64,000 nt of DNA from Naegleria gruberi. Lineage: Eukaryota. Location of the stretch: the NCBI GenBank assembly GCA_000004985.1, contig GG738850.1. One strand, 5' to 3'. This document shows, in pieces, positions 4,079 through 62,978 of this stretch (the first letter of the stretch is position 1; each line of letters opens with the position of its first letter). The notes beneath the pieces are model-generated. The model was not told where the DNA came from. It ran no database searches and worked only from the letters and a program-made list of their open reading frames with translations. Position numbers and translations under genes: made by a program.

Positions 4079-4167
4079 GGGTGGTTAGCTCAGCGGTAGA
4101 GCACCGGATTGCAAAGTTAATTGCAGCAGACATCCGATGGTCACGTGTTCGATCCACGTACCACCCT
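4079..4167 (+). tRNA. tRNA-Cys (anticodon GCA) with a 17-nt intron in the anticodon loop
   Basis: GGGTGGTTAGCTCAGCGGTAGAGCACCGGATTGCAAA[gttaattgcagcagaca]TCCGATGGTCACGTGTTCGATCCACGTACCACCC+T folds as a cloverleaf with acceptor GGGTGGT/ACCACCC, D stem GCTC/GAGC, T stem ACGTG/CACGT, T loop TTCGATC and anticodon loop TTGCAAA. Intron is about 4116..4132. The track ORF 4081..4266 is just a translation of this tRNA. Confidence 0.85.
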
Positions 4168-4570: not shown

Positions 4571-5314
4571 ATGGTAAAATCAGATCAACCTACCGCACCA
4601 ACTGGCACACGTTGTAAAACATGTGTTTGTGGAGAAACAGGGTGCGAACATATCAAGCAATTGAGAAAAATGACTGGTAAAGGGAAACCATATATCAAAA
4701 GCTTTAATGAAAAGATCCAACGTTTAATAACATTAGAAATGAAGGACGAATTTGAGAAGTTTTTAAAGGGAGAATTGACAAAAATCAACTTGGATTCTCT
4801 CAAGCCAAAGACTGGAAAAGAATACGAACTTGGTATTAAAGTTGAATTTTATGATGTCATTGAAGTGAAGTGGAAGAAAACTATTCAAACATGTGACAAC
4901 TCTAACTCAAGTATTGGATCAAGTGCTAATCCACTCCGTTCTCCACAAACAGGTAATGATATCTTAAATTTTTTTGAAGAAGCCAATGAAGACAACATGT
5001 CAGATTCATCAGTCAACCTTGATGAAATGAATGAATCTCAAACAATCCATTCACAGCCTAAATATAAGTGTATGGTAGATACTCCAGAAAGTTTGCAAAT
5101 GATCTGTCTATCTGATATTGAATTGAGAAGCTATTCCAATTTAAAAACACGTTTGAGTGAAAAGTTCTCATGTACTGTTGGTAGCATCTATTTCAAATAT
5201 CAACAGGATCGTAAAAAGTGCCTGTTGGAAGATGATAGAGATTTAATGGATTTATTTAGTCGTGAATTAATAAAGAGTCAAAAGGATTGGGAAAACTTTA
5301 TAATTTCCATTTGA
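4571..5314 (+). CDS. Hypothetical protein with a C-terminal PB1-like domain; N-terminal Cys cluster (CKTCVCGETGC)
   Basis: 247-aa ORF. The C-terminal segment ICLSDIELRSYSNLKTRLSEKFSCTVGSIYFKYQQDRKKCLLEDDRDLMDLF resembles the PB1/OPCA acidic motif (YxDEDGD-like). It lies between the two inverted tRNA-Cys copies. Confidence 0.4.
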   Translation: MVKSDQPTAPTGTRCKTCVCGETGCEHIKQLRKMTGKGKPYIKSFNEKIQRLITLEMKDEFEKFLKGELTKINLDSLKPKTGKEYELGIKVEFYDVIEVKWKKTIQTCDNSNSSIGSSANPLRSPQTGNDILNFFEEANEDNMSDSSVNLDEMNESQTIHSQPKYKCMVDTPESLQMICLSDIELRSYSNLKTRLSEKFSCTVGSIYFKYQQDRKKCLLEDDRDLMDLFSRELIKSQKDWENFIISI

Positions 5315-5364: not shown

Positions 5365-5453
5365 AAGGGTGGTACGTGGATCGAACACGTGACCATCGGA
5401 TGTCTGCTGCAAATATCTTTGCAATCCGGTGCTCTACCGCTGAGCTAACCACC
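5365..5453 (-). tRNA. tRNA-Cys (GCA), second copy in inverted orientation, with a 17-nt intron
   Basis: The reverse complement gives exons identical to the 4079..4167 copy. The intron (gatatttgcagcagaca) differs at 3 positions. The 31 nt 3' of the tRNA (ccttttaccttcttttgagttataagaaatt) are also identical to the flank of the first copy. Track ORF 5267..5452 is spurious. Confidence 0.85.
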
Positions 5454-5529
5454 CTGTTGTGGTGTTAAGAATTAAGACGATCACTGCAGTACCCTACATA
5501 CTAAGGCTATACAAAACTCCACCATAATA

Positions 5530-33595: not shown

Positions 33596-33667
33596 GCTTT
33601 GTAATAAAATAAAAGATTTTCTAAGGTCGCCTATTCATATTCATCCAGAATGATTGCAGTCATAAAA

Positions 33668-33785
33668 GACTACAGCACCACAGGTTCCCAAGTTGTCTCC
33701 AACCTCAGTACTGATGTGGCTCGACGATGCTTAACTTCTCAAATCGGACGGGATGAGGTGCATTCATCGTGATATGGCCGTAGCC
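33668..33785 (-). rRNA. 5S ribosomal RNA gene (118 nt)
   Basis: Minus-strand sequence GGCTACGGCCATATCACGATGAATGCACCTCATCCCGTCCGATTTGAGAAGTTAAGCATCGTCGAGCCACATCAGTACTGAGGTTGGAGACAACTTGGGAACCTGTGGTGCTGTAGTC matches the universal 5S pattern: ACGGCCATA, CCCGTCCGAT, box A GAAGTTAAGC, AGTACT, GGGAGAC-like, GGTGCTGTAG. Helix I pairs the 5' and 3' ends. It is followed by TTTT (Pol III terminator) and lies 73 bp downstream of the LMBD1 stop, on the opposite strand. Confidence 0.85.
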
Positions 33786-34325: not shown

Positions 34326-34396
34326 TCGGGTGTGGTATAGTGGTAGCATTCCAGACTGTCACTCTGGCGACCCGGGTTCAATTCCCGGCACTCGAG
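34326..34396 (+). tRNA. tRNA-Asp (anticodon GTC)
   Basis: TCGGGTG TG GTAT AGTGGTA GCAT T CCAGA CTGTCAC TCTGG CGAC CCGGG TTCAATT CCCGG CACTCGA G. Acceptor has one G-U, a 4-nt variable loop as in tRNA-Asp, and discriminator G. One A-C mismatch in the D stem. Followed by TTTTTT (Pol III terminator). Confidence 0.75.
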
Positions 34397-34825
34397 AATA
34401 GTTTTTTGCTTTATCTCCAGGATTTGAGTTTTAATTTTTTCATAGTAGCAGGTATGATATGTAGTCGAGCTAATTACCATTTTTCAAAGTTTCATCTCTT
34501 AAAACCACCGAGAAAATAATCAAAGATTATATACTTTCATTTTTTTTAAAAATATTCCAAGTTCTTTTCAGCTGCCTGCAGTTCCATGCCTTAATTTCAT
34601 TTACATTAAACTTGTTAATTAAATATTATATATTTATTAATATTTAATTAACACAATATATTTACAACGGATTTCAATGAAACTAGCAAACTACCTATTT
34701 CAAAAAACACGTGTTTTTTACAATATTCTTAATCACGCAACACGTGTTTGAAAATCATCTTGCAATATTATAAACCATTTTAAAGAAGTAGTTACAAAAT
34801 TGTTAAATAAATATTACTAAAAAAA

Positions 34826-36478
34826 ATGATGAAACAAGTAATTGGAAGGAAAGCAACATTGTTGGTGTTGATTTTGGCTTTATGCACAATATTTGTTATG
34901 GGAAAGGAATCGAATAATGATCCAATTATTGGACTTTCTATCGGAAATACACACTGGAGAGCTGTCATTATTAGAAATGGTAATGTTGAATGGATTAGAG
35001 ATGGAGAAGGGCAGATTGAACACAAATCTTTTGAGAATATTAACAAAATAATAGGAAAAAATTACAAATCCATTCAATTTAAAGATCCATACTTGTTGGA
35101 ATCGAATAAGATTTTTGAAAGAAATGGAAAGGTTTATTGTAAATTTGATGTAGATGGAGTTGTGAAGGAAATGACACCAGAAGATATTTATTCAAACATT
35201 CTGCTTGATGTAAAGCAAGCAACTTTAGAATATTTAAATGAGAATATTACAAGAATCTACATTTCAGTTCCTGTTTATTTTGGTCCTGATCAAAGAAATG
35301 TTATTCGAAATGCTGCTTCAGAGCAAGGTTTAAAAATTGAAAGATTTCTTCTAGATCCAGTCAACACGGCAACATTCAATACCAAGGAATACGAATCAAA
35401 TAATTCAGCTAACATTCTAGTTGTGGACATGGGAAGAAAATCATTGGATGCAACTGTACTGAGTAGAAATAATAGCGTGTTTGAAGTTTACCAAGCTGAA
35501 TCGAATGGCCAATTGGGATCTGAAAAGTTTCATATGAAATTGAGAGATTTATTTGTTTCGAAATTTAAGAAACAACATGAATCATTAAGAGATGTGAATT
35601 TATTGGAAAATCAACAGGTGAATGACTTGTTAATGAGTCATGCTGAGATAGCAATGATAGCCCTCTCGAATGATTGTAAATATCATATTGTAATACCATC
35701 TCTCTATGAAGGAAAGGATTTCACATACACTCTAACTCGTGATTACTTTGAAAAACATTGTAAAGACCTTCTTGATGAAATTTCCAAGTTGATTTACAGC
35801 ATTATTACAGAGACAGTTTTTTACTTTGAGACTGTTGATTCGGTCATTCTCTCAGGTGACTCAACCAATAACCCGTTAATAAGGAAGTCAATTACTAATC
35901 GTTTTCCATTTTCCAAAGTTGTACATGGGCAAAATCCAGAGGTTGGTGCTGCTATTCAAGCTTACATGAGAAATCATCCTGAATCAAGTGTTCCGACTTT
36001 ATTTCTTGCGCCATTTTCCATTGGAATTGAAAATTCAGATCATCAATTGGTGAAGATTATTCAAAGGGGTGACTTGTTACCAACTGTGAAACGAGTAATC
36101 TTTTCAAATTTGGATGATTTTAGTGAATCTGCTCATTTGAAGATTTTCATTGGTGAATCTGTGGTTAATATTGGACCAAGGAATGTTCATATCGGTGATT
36201 TGATTCTGAAAGGAATTGAATTGACTGAGAGCGGGAATGCACAAATTCAAATTTCCTTTCAAATTGATGGAGAGTATAATCTCACAGTTACAGCTCTCGA
36301 TTTGAAAACCAACGCCAAGAGTGAAACTGTGATTTCTCTTCACAGTTTTGCCAATAATCTTGAACTAATTGATGAATTATTAGAGGATGGAATTCAAGAA
36401 GTCACAGATAATGTTAAAACTGAAAAGCTTATTTCCAGTTTCATCGTGGATCCAATTAAAAATCATGACGAATTTTAA
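34826..36478 (+). CDS. Hsp70-family ATPase, short STCH/HSPA13-like form with signal peptide (nucleotide-binding domain only, no canonical C-terminal substrate-binding domain)
   Basis: Signal peptide MMKQVIGRKATLLVLILALCTIFVMG. Actin-like ATPase motifs IIGLSIGNTHWRAVII (phosphate 1), ISVPVYFGPDQRNVIRNAASEQGLKIERFLLDPVNTA and VILSGDSTNNPLIRKSI (like GGSTRIP). Length is 550 aa. Confidence 0.7.
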   Translation: MMKQVIGRKATLLVLILALCTIFVMGKESNNDPIIGLSIGNTHWRAVIIRNGNVEWIRDGEGQIEHKSFENINKIIGKNYKSIQFKDPYLLESNKIFERNGKVYCKFDVDGVVKEMTPEDIYSNILLDVKQATLEYLNENITRIYISVPVYFGPDQRNVIRNAASEQGLKIERFLLDPVNTATFNTKEYESNNSANILVVDMGRKSLDATVLSRNNSVFEVYQAESNGQLGSEKFHMKLRDLFVSKFKKQHESLRDVNLLENQQVNDLLMSHAEIAMIALSNDCKYHIVIPSLYEGKDFTYTLTRDYFEKHCKDLLDEISKLIYSIITETVFYFETVDSVILSGDSTNNPLIRKSITNRFPFSKVVHGQNPEVGAAIQAYMRNHPESSVPTLFLAPFSIGIENSDHQLVKIIQRGDLLPTVKRVIFSNLDDFSESAHLKIFIGESVVNIGPRNVHIGDLILKGIELTESGNAQIQISFQIDGEYNLTVTALDLKTNAKSETVISLHSFANNLELIDELLEDGIQEVTDNVKTEKLISSFIVDPIKNHDEF

Positions 36479-53878: not shown

Positions 53879-56800
53879 ATGTTTGGCAAGTGGTTCGGAA
53901 GTAAGAATAAAGCAGCTGATGATGATTTATCACAAGTTTCAGCCAACACAAATAATGATGCCTTGACTACAACGACATCATCCATTAGCACCATTCCAAA
54001 ATGTTTACACAATTTGAAATTGGACGATTTTGTGGGTGTGAGAATGTTGGGAGAAACCTATTCTGATAAGGCCTCTACATTATTACCACTCGTTTCACAA
54101 CGTTTGCAATGTCATGTGACCTATCCAATTGTTCAGGTTGTTTCGACCATGACTTTCCGTAATCAAAATCAAAAGTGTGTAGAGGGTGAGTTGCTATTGC
54201 CAATGCCAGAGGGTGCAACCTTAATTGGTTATGCTATGGAAGTTGATGGTTCTTTAATTGATGCTGTCCCAGTTCAAAAAGAAAAGGCAAAACAAGTTTT
54301 TGAAGAAGAAGTGAGATCGGGAAGAAAAGTTGCCATGGTAGAGAAGGTAGCCCAATCCAATTCATTCAAAACTCGTCTCTATCCATTGCCATATAATACT
54401 GACAAGACTGTTCAAGTTAAATATCAAATGATTTTGAACGAAACTGTACAAAAGAATAATAATTCTCAAAGTGGAAAAATTAATGGAACTGCTTGGGTAC
54501 CGCTCTCCTTTATAGATTTTGCTGCATTGAGAGATGATACAAAGATTGAATTTACTCTCAATCAAACTTCATTGCAAGGGTTTGAAACTCAAGTTCTCAT
54601 GAGTGTTGCTGGAGGTTCCTCTGGTGTGGAAGATCAATTATTATGGACAAGCAAGAATGCTAGTGCAAGAACTGGTTATTTTGAACTCAAAAAGTCAGAT
54701 CTCAAAGATTCCATGACAGGTTTCAAATTGCAAGTCACAAAGCAATCCGAAGATGTTAGAGATATGTTGCTTGCTTCTGAGAATGGTTACTTTATGGCAT
54801 CTATTCCTGTTCCTCAACTAAGTGATGAATTGAGAAATAAGAGCCGTATTGGAAACAAGGTTCAAATTATTTGGGATTGTTCAAATAGTTCAAAGAATAG
54901 TCATGAAAAGAACCTTAAGAACTTAAAGTTCATCTTGGAAGGAATTGCACCATCTTCTATCTATTTCACCTCATTCAGCTCCGATATCATTGAATCAACT
55001 GAATTTAAATCAGTATCTGATGCTTTGAAGCACGTGGGTGGAGTGTTTTACGATGGTGGTTCAAATATGCTCCTCCTTGATAAGGGTGTTATCAACAAAT
55101 CAGCTGATTATTGTATTGCATTCACTGATGGTGTTCATACCTTTGGTTTTGAAATTAGTCCATTGGCTAACTTTGAAAAACCAATTTACTTTATCACCTC
55201 TGGCTCGGTTATCAATTCACATTTATTGAAGCACATTGCAACAAAGAGTGGTGGTGTCTATCTCAATGCAAATGAACTCTCTGAAACCGAACTATTGAAG
55301 GCTATTGGCAAACCTGTTCTTTCTTTTGCAGTTGCTGATTTTGAAGATTCTGATATGGAGGAGGTTTATCCAAACGAACCAGTTAGTCTTACTGAAGGAG
55401 GTGTGTTCAAATTATTTGGTAAATTCAAGAATAGTGGAAAGGAGAGTGTTAAAGTTGCTGTTTCATTTAGATATGGATCTTCCGTATACCATGTTCAAGA
55501 ATTGGACTTACCGGTCAACTTGGAACAATGCGAAGCTGCTATTTTACCATTATTGTGGGCTCAACAAAAGATTGATTCACTCTCCACATTCCCTCACTTA
55601 TTCAAAGATGAAATTAGTAGACTTGGACAAGAATTCAGAATTGTAACAGATGATACTACACTTTTAGTATTGGAAACTTTGGATCAATACTTGAAGCACA
55701 ATATTACTCCACCAGCTTCCCTTTCCAATGTATTCAAACAATATACTGAAACAAAGAAGAATGAGCAAGAAAGTGAAGAACGAAGAGAAAAGGAAAAGAT
55801 TGAAAGAATTGTCACTATGTGGCAAGAAAGAGTAAATTGGCATAACCGTGATTTCCAATCTGTGACAAAAGATCAGAAAATTTATCATGATGCTTCAGGC
55901 GACAACGATGATGAAGAAGAGTGTGAATGTGATGACTTTGATGGTGGGGTACCAGAAATGGAATGTTGCCCTAGTGAAACCCTTTGTTGCCAATCAGCAG
56001 TACAAGAGGATTGTTTAATGTTGGACAGAGAAGAATGCAAAGAGAAGTGTTCTGAAGAAAGGGAGGAGAAATCAGACAAGAAACCTAAAAAGAAAAAAAA
56101 GGAAGGTTCCTCCAAGCAATCAAAAGGAGTTTCTGGATCCATCAATATTAAGCCTTGGAGTCCAGATGCCTCATACTGCAAAGCCATCTCAACAGCCAGT
56201 GATCCTTACAAGGAATATTTGAAACAAAGAGAAAGCTATACTGACTCACCTGCCTTCTACCTTGATGTTGCTGACTATTTCCTTTCAAGCTTGAAAAATT
56301 CACAACTTGGTGTCAGAGTTTTATCCAACATTGCAGAATTAGAATTGGAAAATATTCAATTGTACCGTATTGTTGGATATCGTTTAGATCAAGCTGATGC
56401 TCTTGAATTAGCTGAATGGGTGTTTGAGAGGGTAAAATCACTTGCTCCTTACGAACCTCAATCTTACAGAGATTTGGCTCTTGTTAAGGAAAGACTTGGA
56501 AAATATGAAGAAGCCATGCACTTATTCAATAAGGTTATTACAGGAAAGTGGGATATGCGTTTTGATGAAATTGAAATGACTGTTGCTACTGAGATGAACC
56601 ATCTCTTAATCAACGATCCAAACCTTCCAATTATTGACAAACGTTTCATTCATAACTTTGAATTGGATATTCGTATTTCAATGGCATGGGATGTCAATGA
56701 CACTGATTTGGATTTACACGTTCAAGAACCAGCTGATAAAGGTGGTGAACATGCCTATTTCGGACACAATAGAACAAAAATTGGAGGTTATGGTAAGTAT

Positions 56801-57084
56801 TCAAAGTAATATTTGTAAATTAATTTTTTATCAAATTAGTGAGTAGAGATTTCAGACAAGGATACGGACCTGAAGAATACATGATTAAGAAAGCTCCAAA
56901 AGGTCAATATAGAGCTACCACCAACTATTACAGTAGTCATACACAGACACTAACCGGAGGCACAACAGTTTTATGCACCTTTTTCACTAACTACATGAGA
57001 CCAAATGAACAAAGACAAATGTCAACCATTAGATTAGCCACCCACAGATCCGATGTAGTTGTTTGTGATATTCAAATTGATTAA
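53879..57084 (+). CDS. VIT - vWA-like - DUF2135-type C-terminal domain protein (vault/inter-alpha-trypsin family architecture), 2 exons
   Basis: VIT-domain-like N-terminus (LQCHVTYPIVQVVSTMTFRNQNQKCVEGELLLPMPEGATLIGYAMEVDGSLIDAVPVQKEKAKQVFEEE ... FKTRLYPLPYNTDKTVQVKYQ). The C-terminal WDVNDTDLDLHVQEPADKGGEHAYFGHNRTKIGG | VSRDFRQGYGPEEYMIKKAPKGQYRATTNYYSSH matches the DUF2135 pattern (TDLDLHV.EP.G...Y..N..T..GG ... GYGPEEY ... G.Y...VNYY). Intron 56793..56839 (GTAAGT..ATTAG, 47 nt) joins ORFs 53879..56809 and 56839..57084. Confidence 0.65.
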
Positions 57085-57307: not shown

Positions 57308-58308
57308 ATGGCCAAAATTAACAAGGTGGTGTGTGCCAACGTTTGTCTATCGATTGTTTGTGTGTTGGGCATTATGGGAGCAATCGCATTGGCTGCGCTC
57401 TCGATTGTGGATGCTCTTGATTCGGATTTGAGTAAACTTGGCGTTGCTTTCCCAGATGGTTTTTGCAAAGATACTCGTATGTATTTTAATAATATTGATG
57501 GAATATAATTGATTGAATGATAATATCATGTTATTGATAATGAATGTTGAACAATGATGACAATGATCGTGATTGATCAAATAATTAATTATTATTTAAA
57601 TATGTGTGGATGATTGTGTGGATAATGATCGGAATAGACCTGAGTGAACGTCGTCCATTTTCAATGACTTATAAAGTTGTAGATGGTGTTAATCACACTG
57701 CTACTACCTACAAGATTTGTGCTGATATGCTTCCAGGACATCTTGAAGGATACAATGGCACCTTCTGTCTCTATCCACCAATTCCAAGAGATGCCGAAGG
57801 TAACCCTGTTCTCTCAGATATGAACTTTCATTGTGGATTTGATTTGGCAGTAATGTTTGAAAGATTTGGTTTTGCTGCTGGGTTTGCTCTTGGAAGTCTT
57901 TTTATTTTACTTTGGATTGTTCTCACTAGAAAGAATATTGAAAAGAATTCAGTTAAATGGGTTGGAAGAGTTTTTGGAGGTATTCACACCGTTTGGACTA
58001 TTTTGAGTGTTGCAGCTGGATTTTACTTGATGATAAGAGATGCTCATCGTGTCCAACAAAGTAATGAATATTGTGAAACATTTAGACAAACTTATTGTAA
58101 CCCTGTTGGATTTGGTGATCCAATTGTTGGTTGTACTTGTAACAATTTGAACTATGTTGGTATGCCATTGTTGGAAGCTATTTTGATTGTAATTTATACA
58201 TTCTCTGTCATTTCAACTATTTTCAGATGGTTTGCTGATTATAGAGCTGCCAAAGAAGGATATACTGATTTGGATGCAGCTGTGGCTGATTTGACCAGAA
58301 ATCAATAA
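57308..58308 (+). CDS. Hypothetical four-TM membrane protein with Cys-rich extracellular loops, 2 exons
   Basis: Exon 1 is 57308..57476 (MAKINKVVCANVCLSIVCVLGIMGAIALAALSIV...FCKDT). Intron 57477..57637 (GTATGT..AATAG). Exon 2 is 57638..58308. Four hydrophobic helices with loops containing CADM...FCLYPP...FHCGFD and CETFRQTYCNPVGFGDPIVGCTCNNL. Confidence 0.45.
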
Positions 58309-58484
58309 TTATTTCTTTAAAAGATTACAATTTTGTTAATTTATTCAATACTATAAATATATCTAAATTATTATGTTTGTTTGAACTTATTTCGTAATAT
58401 CTCAATATCATTTGAAAATATTTTTCGTTTCCTTTACAATTTTTTTTTAATTTATAATTTAAATATTTTTTACAATTAAAATAA

Positions 58485-59975
58485 TTATTCTTCCCATTTG
58501 GCGTGGAAAGCACCCTTCATGTCAGTTCGTTCATAAGTGTGAGCACCAAAGAAATCACGTTGAGCTTGAATCAAATTGGCTGGCAAACGTCCTCTTCTGT
58601 AAGAGTCATAATATGCCAAACTTGAAGAAAGGGCAGGAGTTGGAATACCAGCTGAAATGGCCATTTGGATGATCTTTCTCCATGCAGCTTGTCTTTCAGC
58701 AATTTCCTTATTAAAATCTGGGTCCAAGAACAAACTTGGCAAGTTTGGATTGAGATCATAGGCATTCTTAATACGATCAAGGAAAACAGCTCTAATGATA
58801 CAACCACCCTTCCAGATACGAGCAATTTCACCGAGCTTCAAATTCCATCCATATTGCTTGGAAGCTTCAGCAATCAAATTCATACCTTGAGTATAAGAAC
58901 AAATCTTTGAACAGTAGAGAGCATTCTTCAATTGTTGAACAAAGACCTTCTTGTCAACAGTTTCAGTCAAATCGTTTGGAGTTGGACCAGTCAATTGAGA
59001 TTCAGCACTCAATCTTTCATCTCTCAATGATGAAATATAACGAGAGTCAAGAGCAGAAGCCATAGTTGGGATAGCAATTCCTCTTTCAGCACCTTCTTGA
59101 ACAGTCCATTTACCAGTACCCTTACTACCACTCTTATCTACAATCTTATCAACGAGGTGACCTTCACCCAAATCGTCCTTCTTCTTGAAAATCTTGCTTG
59201 TAATTTCAATAAGATAACTCTTCAATTCAGAATTATTCCATTCAGTGAAAGTTTCAGCAATTTCTTCATTTGTCAATTTACCAACACTCTTCATCATGTC
59301 ATAAACTTCAGCAATAAGTTGCATATCTCCGTATTCAATACCATTGTGGACCATCTTGACATAATTACCTGATCCTCTTTCACCAATATATGTGACACAA
59401 GGTGGTTCATTCACGAGTGGAGCAGCAATCTTTTCCAAAATATGTTTGATTTGATCATAAGCTTCAATTGGACCACCTGGCATCAATGATGGACCATGTC
59501 TAGCACCTTCTTCACCACCACTAACACCCATACCCATGTATAATAATCCGAGCTCAACAGCCTTCTTGGCACGCTTTTCAGTATTCAAGAACCATTCGTT
59601 ACCACCATCAATAATAATGTCACCCTTTTCCAAAAGTGGTGACAAGAGTTCAATAGTTGAGTCAACTGGGTTACCAGCTTGAACAAGCATAATAACCTTA
59701 CGTGGCTTGGAGAGACTGTTTACGAATTCTTGCATGGTTTTGAATCCAGCAAGTTGATAAGAACCCTTTCCTTCGTCTTCTGCTCTTTTAACCTAAACAC
59801 AATTTAAATAATAGAATAGAAAAATTCAATCAATTAAAAAACAATAAACACATACTGTGTGTTCAGTCTTTTCATAACTTCTATTGTAGACTGAAATTTT
59901 AAAACCCTTATCAGCAATATTCAAAGCCAAATTTTGACCCATAACAGCCAATCCGATCAATCCGATATCTGCCAT
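58485..59975 (-). CDS. gnd: 6-phosphogluconate dehydrogenase, decarboxylating (oxidative pentose-phosphate pathway), 2 exons
   Basis: Exon 1 is 59975..59856 ([43 protein letters not shown](P)-binding GxAxxG). Intron 59793..59855 (GTATGT..GTTTAG, 63 nt). Exon 2 is 59792..58485, with classical 6PGD motifs ([51 protein letters not shown]). Confidence 0.9.
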
Positions 59976-61204
59976 CTTGTTTCTATTATCATTTTCAATA
60001 CATTCCGATCCATTATTTAAAATAGATTACAGTAATAAATTATTTTTCAAATTCTATCAATTTTATCATCATAACAACATACAATATTCTCTATCTATTT
60101 TTTTCTGTTGTTTTTTAAGAAGCTTAAAATTGGTGGAGACTTGCGCCTGAGAATGAAAATTTTGGACAGAACCCATTTGGAAGAAGTCTCAAAAAAGGAT
60201 AGGAAAGCGCAGGAAGCTTTAATAATAAATATTACTTCCTTAGTTGCGACTTTAATTTCTCAATCTTTGCAACAAGCAATGAATTGAGAAGCAGAAGTCA
60301 TTGCAAAGCTCATGGTTAAAATCTTCAATAGCCGATATTTGATTTGAACGATCAGAGGTAATGTTCTGTATTGCAACAATACATTCGCCACAATTAAAAG
60401 CCTTATGCGTGCGTACCTATGAGTTTCTCCATTGTCCACTCTCTTTAAGCTTCATGGCGTAGGAACAAATAAGAGGAGTTTATATAATTATGCTCGCAGT
60501 GAGGGCGAATTATGTTTGATGTACATCCTTTGCTCATCGAATCATTTTTTGATCATTCACTCCATTGGGAGATGGTCAACCACATCTAACATGTCCAATT
60601 CATTTATTTAGTCCTTCTTCTTTTAAAATCAATCAAGAAAAAACAACTCAATACATTGAGAGAGTTTACTATTATCAATATCCAAAAGTTTGCCCTCTGT
60701 TTCTTTCAAAGTAAAAAGAACAGAGCCCTCCAAAGAGAACAATTCACCTGATCAATTTTATCTATATTCCCAACGCGTAAGCAGTACCCACCTGAATATG
60801 GTTCTTTCAACAAAACAATCCGAGCGTGGCAAAGAAATTAAATTCAAAGAAGAAGAAAATAATTATACAACAATGGTCTTTCCAAAGAATGTGGATAAAT
60901 CCGACAATATGACGTAGGTTTTTTTCTTCGAGATATATGTATTGAAACTTATTGTATTTGCGAATTATGATTGGTTGACAATCAATCTGATATGATGATC
61001 AATGTTATTATTCAATGTTATTATTGATGTTACTCCTTCCATAATAATACTCTGTGATTGCAACAATATTATTCATTATTGAATCAATTAATCTATTACA
61101 CGTGTTACTATTTTTGCAACAATATATATTGAATAATACCATAAATTACTACAAATATTAATATTGATATAACAATCAATTATTATTTAAATACTTTATT
61201 ACTA

Positions 61205-62912
61205 ATGATATTAAATAGTATTGTCATTCTCGGAGCCAGTGGAGATTTGGCTAAGAGAAAACTCTTCCCTGCCTTGTTTACAATTTTCAAAGAAGGATTT
61301 CTCGGAAGTGCTTGGAGAGTTATTGGTTATGCCAGATCTAACTTGACAAAACAAGAATTAATTGATACACACTTATTACCATTCCTTAAGAAACACGATA
61401 AGAAAGATTTGGATGCCTTCTTTGAACATGTTTTTTATCAAGCAGGTCAATATGACAAGGAAGAAGATTTCCAAGCTCTTAACAAATTGATGGAACAATG
61501 CGAAATTGAAGGTGAAAAGATTTTGGAAGCTGAACACAAATCTCAATTGGAACACAAGTGTTTGACCGATGATGAAGTGTTTGATGACTGTAAATCTCCA
61601 ACTGCTCCATTCAAACCACGTCGTCACAGATTCTTCTACTTATCTTTACCTCCAAATGTTTTCCTTAGCTCTGCATCAATGCTCGGAAGAACTTGTAAAT
61701 CTCAAACTGGATATAATAGAATTGTTATTGAAAAGCCATTCGGTAGAGATTTGATCACTTTCAAGAAACTTTCAAATGGTTTATCTAAAGTTTTTGGAAA
61801 GGATGAAATTTACAGAATTGACCACTATATCGGAAAGGAAGTTGTTCAAAACTTGCTTGTTCTCAGATTTGCTAACGTAATTTTGGAACCATTGTGGAAT
61901 AGAAACACAATTAAGAGTGTTCAAATCATTTTCAAGGAAGAATTGGGAGTTGAAGGAAGAGGTGGCTATGTAAGTACTTAATCATATTGTGTGGAAATTT
62001 ATTCATTTCAAATACAGTTCGATAGTTATGGTATCATCAGAGATGTTGCTCAAAACCACTTGCTCCAAATTTTGGCTCTCATTGCTATGGAACCACCAGT
62101 TACATTGAGCCCAACTGATATCAGAAATGAAAAGATTAAAGTACTCAAATCAATTGAACCTGTCAAGATGGAAGATATCGTAGTTGGTCAATACAAAGGA
62201 AAGGTAATTAATGGTGAAAAGGTTCTCGGTTACAGAGAAGATCCAAGTGTTGCCGATGATTCTATCACACCAACCTATGCTGCCTGTGTCCTTAAAGTTA
62301 AGAATAGAAGATGGGATGGTGTTCCATTCTTCCTTGAATCAGGTAAAGCTCTTGATGAAAGACTTGCTGAAATCAGAATTACCTTCAATGAAGTTCCAGC
62401 CAACTTGTAAGTTAATCTACTTTTTATTCAGCAATATTAACACAGATATAGATATACACATGCTGTAGTTAGTCCAAATGAATTGGTTATCAGAATTCAA
62501 CCAAATGAAGCTATCTACTTTAACATTGTAAATAAGGTTCCAGGTTTGGGTGAAAAACTCTCTGAATCTCAACTTAACTTTACTTATAAGACATTGTATG
62601 ATGCCAAGAAGATTCCAGATGCTTACGAACGTCTCATCCTCAATATGGTTCAAGGAGATGAATCTAATTTCTTATCAGAGGATGAACTCAAGTATTGTTG
62701 GCAAATCTTTGATCCAATTCTCCATGAATTGCAAGAAAAGCTTGTTCAACCAGAGGTATGTATTTTGTAATGTATTTGATTGTCTCAAATCGAAATTATA
62801 GCCATATCCATTTGCCAGTGCTGGCCCAACAGCAGTTCATTATTTGAGAGCTCGTTATGGTTTAGTAGCAAGCAAAAATGTGAGTGTTCTTACTCGCTAT
62901 TCTAATCTTTAA
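61205..62912 (+). CDS. zwf: Glucose-6-phosphate 1-dehydrogenase (oxidative pentose-phosphate pathway), at least 4 exons
   Basis: Exons 61205..61969, 62018..62406, 62473..62755 and 62802..62912, with introns of 48, 66 and 46 nt (GTAAGT..ACAG, GTAAGT..TTAG, GTATGT..TATAG). Motifs GASGDLAKRK (NADP binding), RIDHYIGKE (active-site RIDHYLGKE), NVILEPLWNR, YGIIRDVAQNHLLQ. The 3' end is uncertain: a further 66-nt intron (62880..62944) would make the stop 62959 instead of 62912. Confidence 0.85.
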
Positions 62913-62978
62913 CACATTTATTTACAATGATTTTTAATTAATAGGATTCTGATTTGTAAAAATTGTAAAATTACACAT

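Follow-up and report, generated by a model that had tools for sequence, protein, structure and literature searches.

A conserved head-to-head pair of 6-phosphogluconate dehydrogenase and glucose-6-phosphate dehydrogenase genes in Naegleria gruberi, with a candidate shared regulatory core

Several metabolic gene pairs of eukaryotes are divergent and co-regulated, e.g. GAL1-GAL10 of yeast and niiA-niaD of Aspergillus. Bidirectional promoters of mammals are defined by divergent transcription start sites that are <1 kb apart, and in bacteria the genes gnd and zwf form a textbook co-directional operon that is devoid of introns. Here we describe a locus of the protist Naegleria gruberi at which the genes for the two NADPH-producing dehydrogenases of the oxidative pentose-phosphate pathway, 6-phosphogluconate dehydrogenase (6PGDH) and glucose-6-phosphate dehydrogenase (G6PD), are arranged head to head. 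It lies in a stretch of 64,000 nt of contig GG738850.1 (assembly GCA_000004985.1), the whole of which is called the window below. Conserved adjacent and co-regulated gene pairs across eukaryotes are the subject of an earlier report (PMC3500266), and a G6PD-6PGD fusion gene has been found in the diatom Phaeodactylum tricornutum (Stover et al. 2011, PMC3148214).

The Naegleria pair shares features with each of these systems. Like GAL1-GAL10 and niiA-niaD, it consists of the genes for two enzymes of one pathway, which are oriented head to head with <1 kb between them and are conserved in related species. In contrast to those pairs, for which co-regulation and cis-elements have been established experimentally, it is known from its arrangement, its conservation, and two footprints, and the G6PD gene appears to be constitutive, not inducible. 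As in the diatom, the same enzymes are physically linked in a eukaryote, presumably for stoichiometric expression, but the diatom has a single fused open reading frame (ORF), whereas Naegleria has two genes with their own start codons and introns; because these are on opposite strands, no single ORF encodes both enzymes. The adjacency of the same two genes is also reminiscent of the bacterial gnd-zwf linkage, and of the 46 metagenome loci that were fetched (mostly bacterial), 21 had a 6PGDH homologue at most 5 kb away from zwf. However, the Naegleria genes are divergent, monocistronic, and spliced. The divergent orientation and the distance of 822-897 bp between the start codons resemble mammalian bidirectional promoters, but the Naegleria locus has no feature of the CpG-island type, and its start sites have been deduced rather than mapped.

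Considering all results jointly, we think it fairly probable that this is a conserved divergent pair with a shared regulatory core of ~600 bp, in which the footprints would be the elements and the copies of the repeat TTGCAACAA would be lineage-specific. The assignment of 6PGDH to the minus strand and of G6PD to the plus strand, made in the initial annotation from the sequence alone, was borne out by the gene models and the Pfam domains. The spliced 6PGDH product has 475 aa and is 100% identical to XP_002681464.1 / D2V361. It passes the gathering thresholds of both Pfam NAD_binding_2 (PF03446) and 6PGD (PF00393), the two domain scores being 429.4 and 158.1 bits, and G6PD passes those of G6PD_C (PF02781) and G6PD_N (PF00479) with 354.9 and 166.9 bits. 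The top solved-structure match of the plus-strand gene is human G6PD (E=4e-137), and the corrected protein of 525 aa carries the nucleotide-binding motif GASGDLAKRK as well as the substrate motif RIDHYIGKE.

Synteny in related genomes had been proposed as a check of the pairing, and the divergent pair was found in all Naegleria examined and in Willaertia magna. It is present in N. lovaniensis (C9374_002136 and C9374_002137; locus L001), in N. fowleri (FDP41_000319 and FDP41_000320; L057), in W. magna (ABK040_001766 and ABK040_001767; L002), and on two metagenomic Naegleria-like contigs (L003, L005). In four species, the two genes have consecutive locus tags or accessions; for N. gruberi, the public annotation around the locus was deduced from protein lengths and accession numbers. 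The head-to-head order is therefore at least as old as the ancestor that Naegleria and Willaertia share. Immediate flanking genes are likewise common to the Naegleria loci, and the synteny between N. gruberi and N. lovaniensis breaks two genes away from the pair. In Willaertia, nothing in 17.5 kb besides the pair matches the N. gruberi window. The pair has thus outlived extensive local rearrangement; this speaks in favor of selective maintenance without proving it. Genes related to glucose-6-phosphate are linked in another way at a eukaryote-like metagenomic locus (L009, 211-5190; JGI metagenome 3300057138), the proteins of which are ~60-63% identical and the gene order of which is 6PGD(+), UDP-glucose pyrophosphorylase(-), G6PD(+).

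No gene lies between the divergent genes according to the gene models, the coding-potential scan, and the protein search. No further gene of the pentose-phosphate pathway adjoins the pair in the loci of N. gruberi, N. lovaniensis, N. fowleri, and Willaertia, so that a cluster of three genes is not formed; the neighbors in N. gruberi encode a membrane protein, a VIT-domain protein, an SDR, and an ORF of unknown function. A literature search on the pairing, Naegleria bidirectional promoters, the run SRR8245504, and the gene accessions yielded no paper that describes the pairing, which is already visible from the consecutive locus tags in public annotations. The pair is real and conserved, and it is a further example of an already known kind of arrangement.

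The position of a possible regulatory region depends on the structure of the G6PD gene (Table 1). In the initial annotation, 59976-61204 had been taken as an intergenic region of 1.2 kb; this does not hold, because exon 1 and intron 1 of G6PD fall within it. In N. gruberi, exon 1 with its donor reads ATGGTCTTTCCAAAGAATGTGGATAAATCCGACAATATGAC/GTAGGT, and the acceptor is TTAAATAG/ at 61218. Exon 1 and its GTRRGT donor are retained in N. lovaniensis, N. fowleri, the two metagenomic contigs, and W. magna. Furthermore, the 1733-nt transcript of a close relative (Logan contig L006), whose protein (P0121) has 96.8% identity to N. gruberi G6PD, splices the equivalent of 60913 straight onto 61219. Its 5′ untranslated region (5′-UTR) of 144 nt aligns with the window at ~60716-60872. 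An alignment of the N-termini revealed that the K-x-D-N-x-T N-terminus is kept as far as Acrasis. Reading of the sequences showed that an in-frame ATG is missing from the beginning of exon 2 in the metagenomic contigs, and that the sole one of Willaertia sits within the nucleotide-binding motif. The upstream exon is thus obligatory in these organisms. ATG 61205 was rejected as the G6PD start on the basis of the conservation of exon 1 in five relatives and the spliced transcript.

The corrected G6PD gene has six exons, which are separated by introns of 305, 48, 45, 46, and 65 nt. Its coding region does not stop at 62912, as had been assumed, but at 62959, after the fifth intron. Published N. 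gruberi primers for reverse-transcription quantitative PCR (RT-qPCR) agree with the splicing of introns 2 and 4 (PMC10555999): the amplicon of 101 nt is spliced across intron 2 (the genomic form would have 149 nt), and the forward primer spans the exon 4/5 junction. The NCBI model XP_002681321.1 (550 aa) already includes exon 1 and starts at an earlier in-frame ATG, 60798. This ATG is 25 codons upstream of the conserved start (MVLSTKQSERGKEIKFKEEENNYTT); the relative's transcript has ATTTGG at this site, so that it is not conserved. Which codon is the true start in N. gruberi depends on the position of the transcription start. The exon that had been missed initially is outside the GC-richer block discussed below and is part of the public gene model.

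Taken together, the region between the two coding sequences has four parts, i.e. a 6PGDH leader of ~100-150 nt beside ATG 59975, a non-coding upstream core of ~600 bp (roughly 60120-60716) that corresponds to the "GC-richer block", the G6PD 5′-UTR with the 41 nt of exon 1, and intron 1. In N. gruberi, 897 bp separate the two start codons, or 822 bp when the NCBI ATG is used; across the spacers, this distance ranges from 481 to 897 bp. The relative's transcript places the G6PD start site at or upstream of ~60716. Together with a deduced 6PGDH start site, the two sites would be ~600 bp apart.

Table 1. Coordinates of the features at the 6PGDH-G6PD locus (positions in the window; GC, fraction of G+C)
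Feature	Position	Strand	Remark
6PGDH exon 2, including the stop codon	58485..59792	-	spliced translation matches the NCBI protein
6PGDH intron, 63 nt, GTATGT...TTTAG	59793..59855	-	excision gives the NCBI protein exactly
6PGDH exon 1, coding part, ATG at 59975	59856..59975	-	
6PGDH 5′-UTR intron, tentative (GTATGT...ATAATAG)	59983..60082	-	putative; alternatively unspliced 5′-UTR
Footprint A, CTTAAAAAA in 6PGDH sense (TTTTTTAAG on the plus strand)	60111..60119	-	
GC-richer block, non-coding, between the transcription units	60160..60620	.	GC 0.367
Imperfect 17-bp hairpin, motif copy 1 in the loop	60248..60299	.	inverted repeat; not significant
Motif copy 1, TTGCAACAAG	60267..60276	+	
Motif copy 2, TTGCAACAAT	60371..60380	+	
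Footprint B, CGTGCGTAC (60408-60416) with partly conserved extension ..ATGAGTTT..	60408..60440	+	
G6PD 5′-UTR, probable	60716..60872	+	by homology with the relative's transcript
G6PD exon 1, conserved coding part MVFPKNVDKSDNMT	60873..60913	+	exon conserved in five relatives
G6PD intron 1, 305 nt	60914..61218	+	GC 0.216
13-nt tandem duplication, TCAATGTTATTAT x2, in intron 1	60999..61025	+	
Motif copy 3, TTGCAACAAT, intronic	61058..61067	+	
CACGTG, intronic	61099..61104	.	
Motif copy 4, TTGCAACAAT, intronic	61114..61123	+	
G6PD exon 2	61219..61969	+	
G6PD exon 3	62018..62406	+	intron 2 = 61970-62017
G6PD exon 4	62452..62755	+	intron 3 = 62407-62451; ..VPANLYTHAVVSPNEL.. as in relatives and NCBI model
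G6PD exon 5	62802..62879	+	intron 4 = 62756-62801
G6PD exon 6 with stop codon TAA	62945..62959	+	intron 5 = 62880-62944

The leader of 6PGDH may be spliced as well. In N. gruberi, a candidate leader intron has the donor GTATGT at 60082 and an acceptor (ATAATAG) that ends at 59983, 7 nt before the ATG. Consensus-like donors and an AG acceptor 2-7 nt before the 6PGDH ATG are also present in N. lovaniensis, N. fowleri, meta3, and Willaertia, and this acceptor is used by three independent gene models, two of N. fowleri and one of N. lovaniensis. A 5′-UTR intron of N. gruberi 6PGDH is thus possible, albeit unproven.

To identify conserved elements, the spacers of the three Naegleria species were compared. 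Seven 8-mers are common to them, while 1.0 is expected, and none of 300 shuffles reached seven. Two footprints emerged. Footprint A is a 9-mer that occurs in N. gruberi, N. lovaniensis, and N. fowleri in collinear position and equal orientation, ~135 nt upstream of the 6PGDH ATG, and is a candidate for a TATA-like core promoter element of this gene. Footprint B consists of CGTGCGTAC and an extension of ~25 nt that is partly conserved in the three-species alignment. CGTGCGTAC is unique in the window, even when one mismatch is allowed, and the loci of N. lovaniensis and N. fowleri have a single copy each, which is located in the spacer, has equal orientation, and is collinear with footprint A. 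In N. gruberi the footprints are 297 nt apart, compared with 121 nt (N. lovaniensis) and 180 nt (N. fowleri). Pairwise blastn and tblastx searches of the spacers yielded a single weak match, which is footprint B. Among four spacers, which covered the most distant relatives but not N. fowleri, only low-complexity k-mers were common.

These features make co-regulation of the pair plausible. The core of ~600 bp would act as a shared bidirectional regulatory region for both genes and would keep the two dehydrogenases co-expressed, probably constitutively. Its likeliest functional elements would be CTTAAAAAA near the 6PGDH start and the central CGTGCGTAC. RT-qPCR in N. gruberi has shown that the G6PD transcript is among the most stable ones across growth phase, heat shock, and H2O2 treatment (PMC10555999), suggesting constitutive, balanced expression rather than stress induction as the likeliest role. 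A more far-reaching form of the proposal is that the core is a genuine bidirectional promoter that has been selected since before the split of Naegleria and Willaertia and couples both NADPH steps, that CGTGCGTAC is a shared binding site in Naegleria, and that the N. gruberi-specific TTGCAACAAT copies, upstream and in the expanded intron 1, may be a new regulatory layer. We regard this combination as possible, but not as probable.

Several points weigh against a shared core. That a promoter is shared at all is what we infer; ~600 bp could fit two independent promoters in a compact genome, and other divergent ORF pairs in the window are ~290-800 bp apart according to the ORF coordinates. Neither Willaertia nor the metagenomic Naegleria-like contigs were found to have the footprints, and there is no element that all lineages with the pair have in common. 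Acrasis kona lacks the pair: its G6PD gene has no 6PGDH gene within 8 kb. In addition, the multiplicity of TTGCAACAA is above that of every shuffle (see below), so that a lineage-specific function of this repeat is possible.

The main rival explanation is neutral linkage, i.e. that the genes have been chance neighbors since a single event, have separate promoters in the spacer, and are not functionally coupled. Spacers of 481-897 bp are long enough for two promoters, and this view is compatible with the missing clade-wide element, with the absence of the pair in Acrasis, with the locus L009, where 6PGD and G6PD lie close together in the same orientation with a UDP-glucose pyrophosphorylase gene between them, and with the behavior of G6PD as a constitutive gene. 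However, the N. gruberi genome has roughly 16,000 genes, and with this number the chance that 6PGDH is the neighbor of G6PD is ~1e-4. Furthermore, Willaertia keeps the pair although every other surrounding gene differs, and between N. gruberi and N. lovaniensis synteny is lost two genes away. Neutral linkage is thus rather unlikely in our view, and the conserved pair with a shared core remains the reading that we favor.

A second alternative assigns the regulation to a repeated motif. The initial annotation had reported four copies of TTGCAACAA(T/G), the presence and coordinates of which were confirmed, together with a CACGTG E-box, in the context of a suggested bidirectional promoter; as a shared cis-element, the array would bind a co-regulating factor there. 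The 10-mer TTGCAACAAK indeed occurs four times, always on the plus strand, and these are the only copies in 64 kb (0.77 expected). None of 2000 dinucleotide-shuffled spacers contained any complex 9-mer four times, and ATTGCAACAAT holds a short inverted repeat (ATTG..CAAT). However, such multiplicity is not specific to the spacer, as the adjoining 6PGDH coding region (58201-59700), used as a real control, also contains a complex 9-mer, TTCAGCAAT, four times. None of the five orthologous first introns and none of the four orthologous spacers that were tested contains the exact motif; these spacers also lack its 7-mer cores TTGCAAC and TGCAACA, and at <2 mismatches no match was found in three relatives. 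Copies 3 and 4 and the E-box are in intron 1 of G6PD, downstream of its promoter. The other two copies of the 9-mer in the window are not upstream of related genes; one (55236) is inside the VIT-domain ORF 53879-56809. The role as a shared cis-element was therefore not upheld, and a binding-site array of this kind is quite improbable.

All four copies are located in DNA that N. gruberi has in excess of its relatives: copies 1 and 2 between footprints A and B, where the spacing is expanded in this species, and copies 3 and 4 in its expanded intron 1. Most likely, the TTGCAACAA copies are thus N. gruberi-specific repeats that were acquired as the spacer and intron 1 expanded. As a shared promoter element, CGTGCGTAC is the stronger candidate. 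No other part of the window matches the spacer significantly, and a single short tandem duplication was found. A miniature inverted-repeat transposable element was considered as the origin of the extra DNA; this is not supported, because the window has no further copies of the inverted repeat (61002-61016 / 61128-61142) and a target-site duplication is not visible. Intron 1 also contains several short inverted repeats. The E-box is present at 61099, as had been claimed, but one CACGTG in 1.2 kb is unremarkable, and the hexamer occurs nine times in the window.

Could the intronic motif copies and the E-box belong to an internal promoter that yields a short G6PD isoform, which begins with MILNS at ATG 61205? 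This ATG is in frame with exon 2 without an intervening stop, the motif copies and the E-box are ~90-150 nt upstream of it, and the intron exceeds its orthologues 1.4- to 6-fold in length (N. fowleri, 217 nt; N. lovaniensis, 175 nt; metagenomic contigs/Willaertia, 46 and 48 nt). The isoform would lack the conserved K-x-D-N-x-T segment, however, and neither the metagenomic contigs nor Willaertia have the matching ATG; in N. lovaniensis, it runs into a stop. The only transcript evidence, from the relative, is for the spliced form. Such a promoter is therefore very improbable. ATG 61205, motif copies 3 and 4, and CACGTG are intronic because intron 1 spans 60914-61218. For comparison, the other introns of both genes have 45-65 nt.

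The initial annotation had also singled out 60160-60620 as unusually GC-rich and a possible hiding place of a non-coding RNA or small exon. The GC fraction of 0.367 was confirmed, but it is barely above that of other long ORF-free segments (up to 0.353-0.356); the contrast arises mainly because the neighboring leader of 6PGDH (59976-60159, 0.245) and intron 1 are very AT-rich. The codon-usage log-odds in the block never exceed ~+5 bits per 90 nt, while the flanking exons have +7 to +13; the maximum in the spacer upstream of G6PD exon 1 is +6.4. A protein search with the 19 stop-free segments of at least 30 aa yielded no match at E<=10 among 5.8 billion proteins. A search of 59900-61300 against Rfam 15 yielded nothing at the gathering score (best E=4-10, far below it), and a scan for C/D-box pairs was negative. 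The fold z-scores of the hairpin are -1.9 and -1.3 (200 shuffles); a signal of z ~-3 at 60170-60320, obtained with 60 shuffles and 78 windows, was not reproduced with 200 shuffles. Although the block is part of the longest ORF-free stretch of the window (59793-61144), has a coding-like GC content, includes a local hairpin, and gives weak matches to small nucleolar RNAs in Rfam (E=4-5), a hidden gene, exon, or non-coding RNA is the least credible of the alternatives, given that the codon-usage, protein, Rfam, C/D-box, and fold tests were all negative, that the block does not align with N. lovaniensis or N. fowleri outside one footprint of ~35 nt, and that the UniProt accessions D2V361 and D2V362 are consecutive, which suggests that no annotated coding sequence lies between the genes.

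Lasting physical linkage of pathway partners is uncommon in eukaryotes, and here a pair stays head to head across a protist family with an otherwise scrambled gene order. Together with the diatom fusion, it is a clean case suggesting that the balance between both enzymes may be under selection. To our knowledge, heterolobosean promoters are essentially uncharacterised, and the small, defined stretch of ~600 bp at this locus, with its two conserved footprints, is suited to a first dissection of a Naegleria promoter. As the apparent start codon at 61205 turned out to be intronic, motif searches in such "spacers" must separate the promoter from the intron.

Several additional observations concern the two genes and their products. 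In the 5′-UTR of G6PD, a 16-mer, AG(C/T)AGTACCCACCTGA at 60780-60795, is common to N. gruberi and the relative's transcript, while the remaining 5′-UTR has diverged; the 16-mer includes CACCTG, a variant of the E-box. G6PD of Naegleria and Willaertia has an acidic insertion of ~40 residues relative to the human enzyme (window 61500-61620, residues ~99-138), and the alignment with human G6PD is broken into residues 6-98 and 139-500 of the 509-aa model that starts at ATG 61205. Acrasis G6PD also has an insertion at this site, but a different one. In Acrasis kona, a gene for a PF10282 lactonase (L007, 16489-17593) is located ~7 kb downstream of G6PD; this family includes the bacterial 6-phosphogluconolactonase of the YbhE type.

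Annotated 6PGDH models of two relatives, P0004 of N. lovaniensis (L001, 8001-9888) and P0147 of N. fowleri (L057, 6001-7863), have non-conserved N-terminal extensions that were built from upstream exons in the spacer, and P0004 also lacks the internal segment SKIFKKKDD...GKWTV. These odd models are probably annotation artefacts built on a real 5′-UTR intron. The top non-heterolobosean matches of 6PGDH are from land plants (63-65% identity), which is consistent with publications in which heterolobosean gnd is of cyanobacterial or plant-like origin (PMC2416651, PMC3087521). The 182 nt between the convergent 3′ ends of 6PGDH and the membrane-protein gene (58306-58487) are the most AT-rich segment of the window (GC 0.126).

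CACGTG is over-represented in the window, with 9 occurrences versus 3.3 expected. One copy each is present in two tRNA genes of 89 nt, 4079-4167 (+) and 5366-5454 (-), which form an inverted pair around the ORF 4571-5314 and have equal Rfam scores; they probably contain an intron, because ARAGORN made no call. A 5S rRNA gene, 33667-33785 (-), and a tRNA-Asp gene, 34326-34396 (+), share one intergenic stretch. Two further copies of CACGTG, at 34708 and 34741, are located 85-118 nt upstream of an ORF of the HSP70 family (34826-36478).

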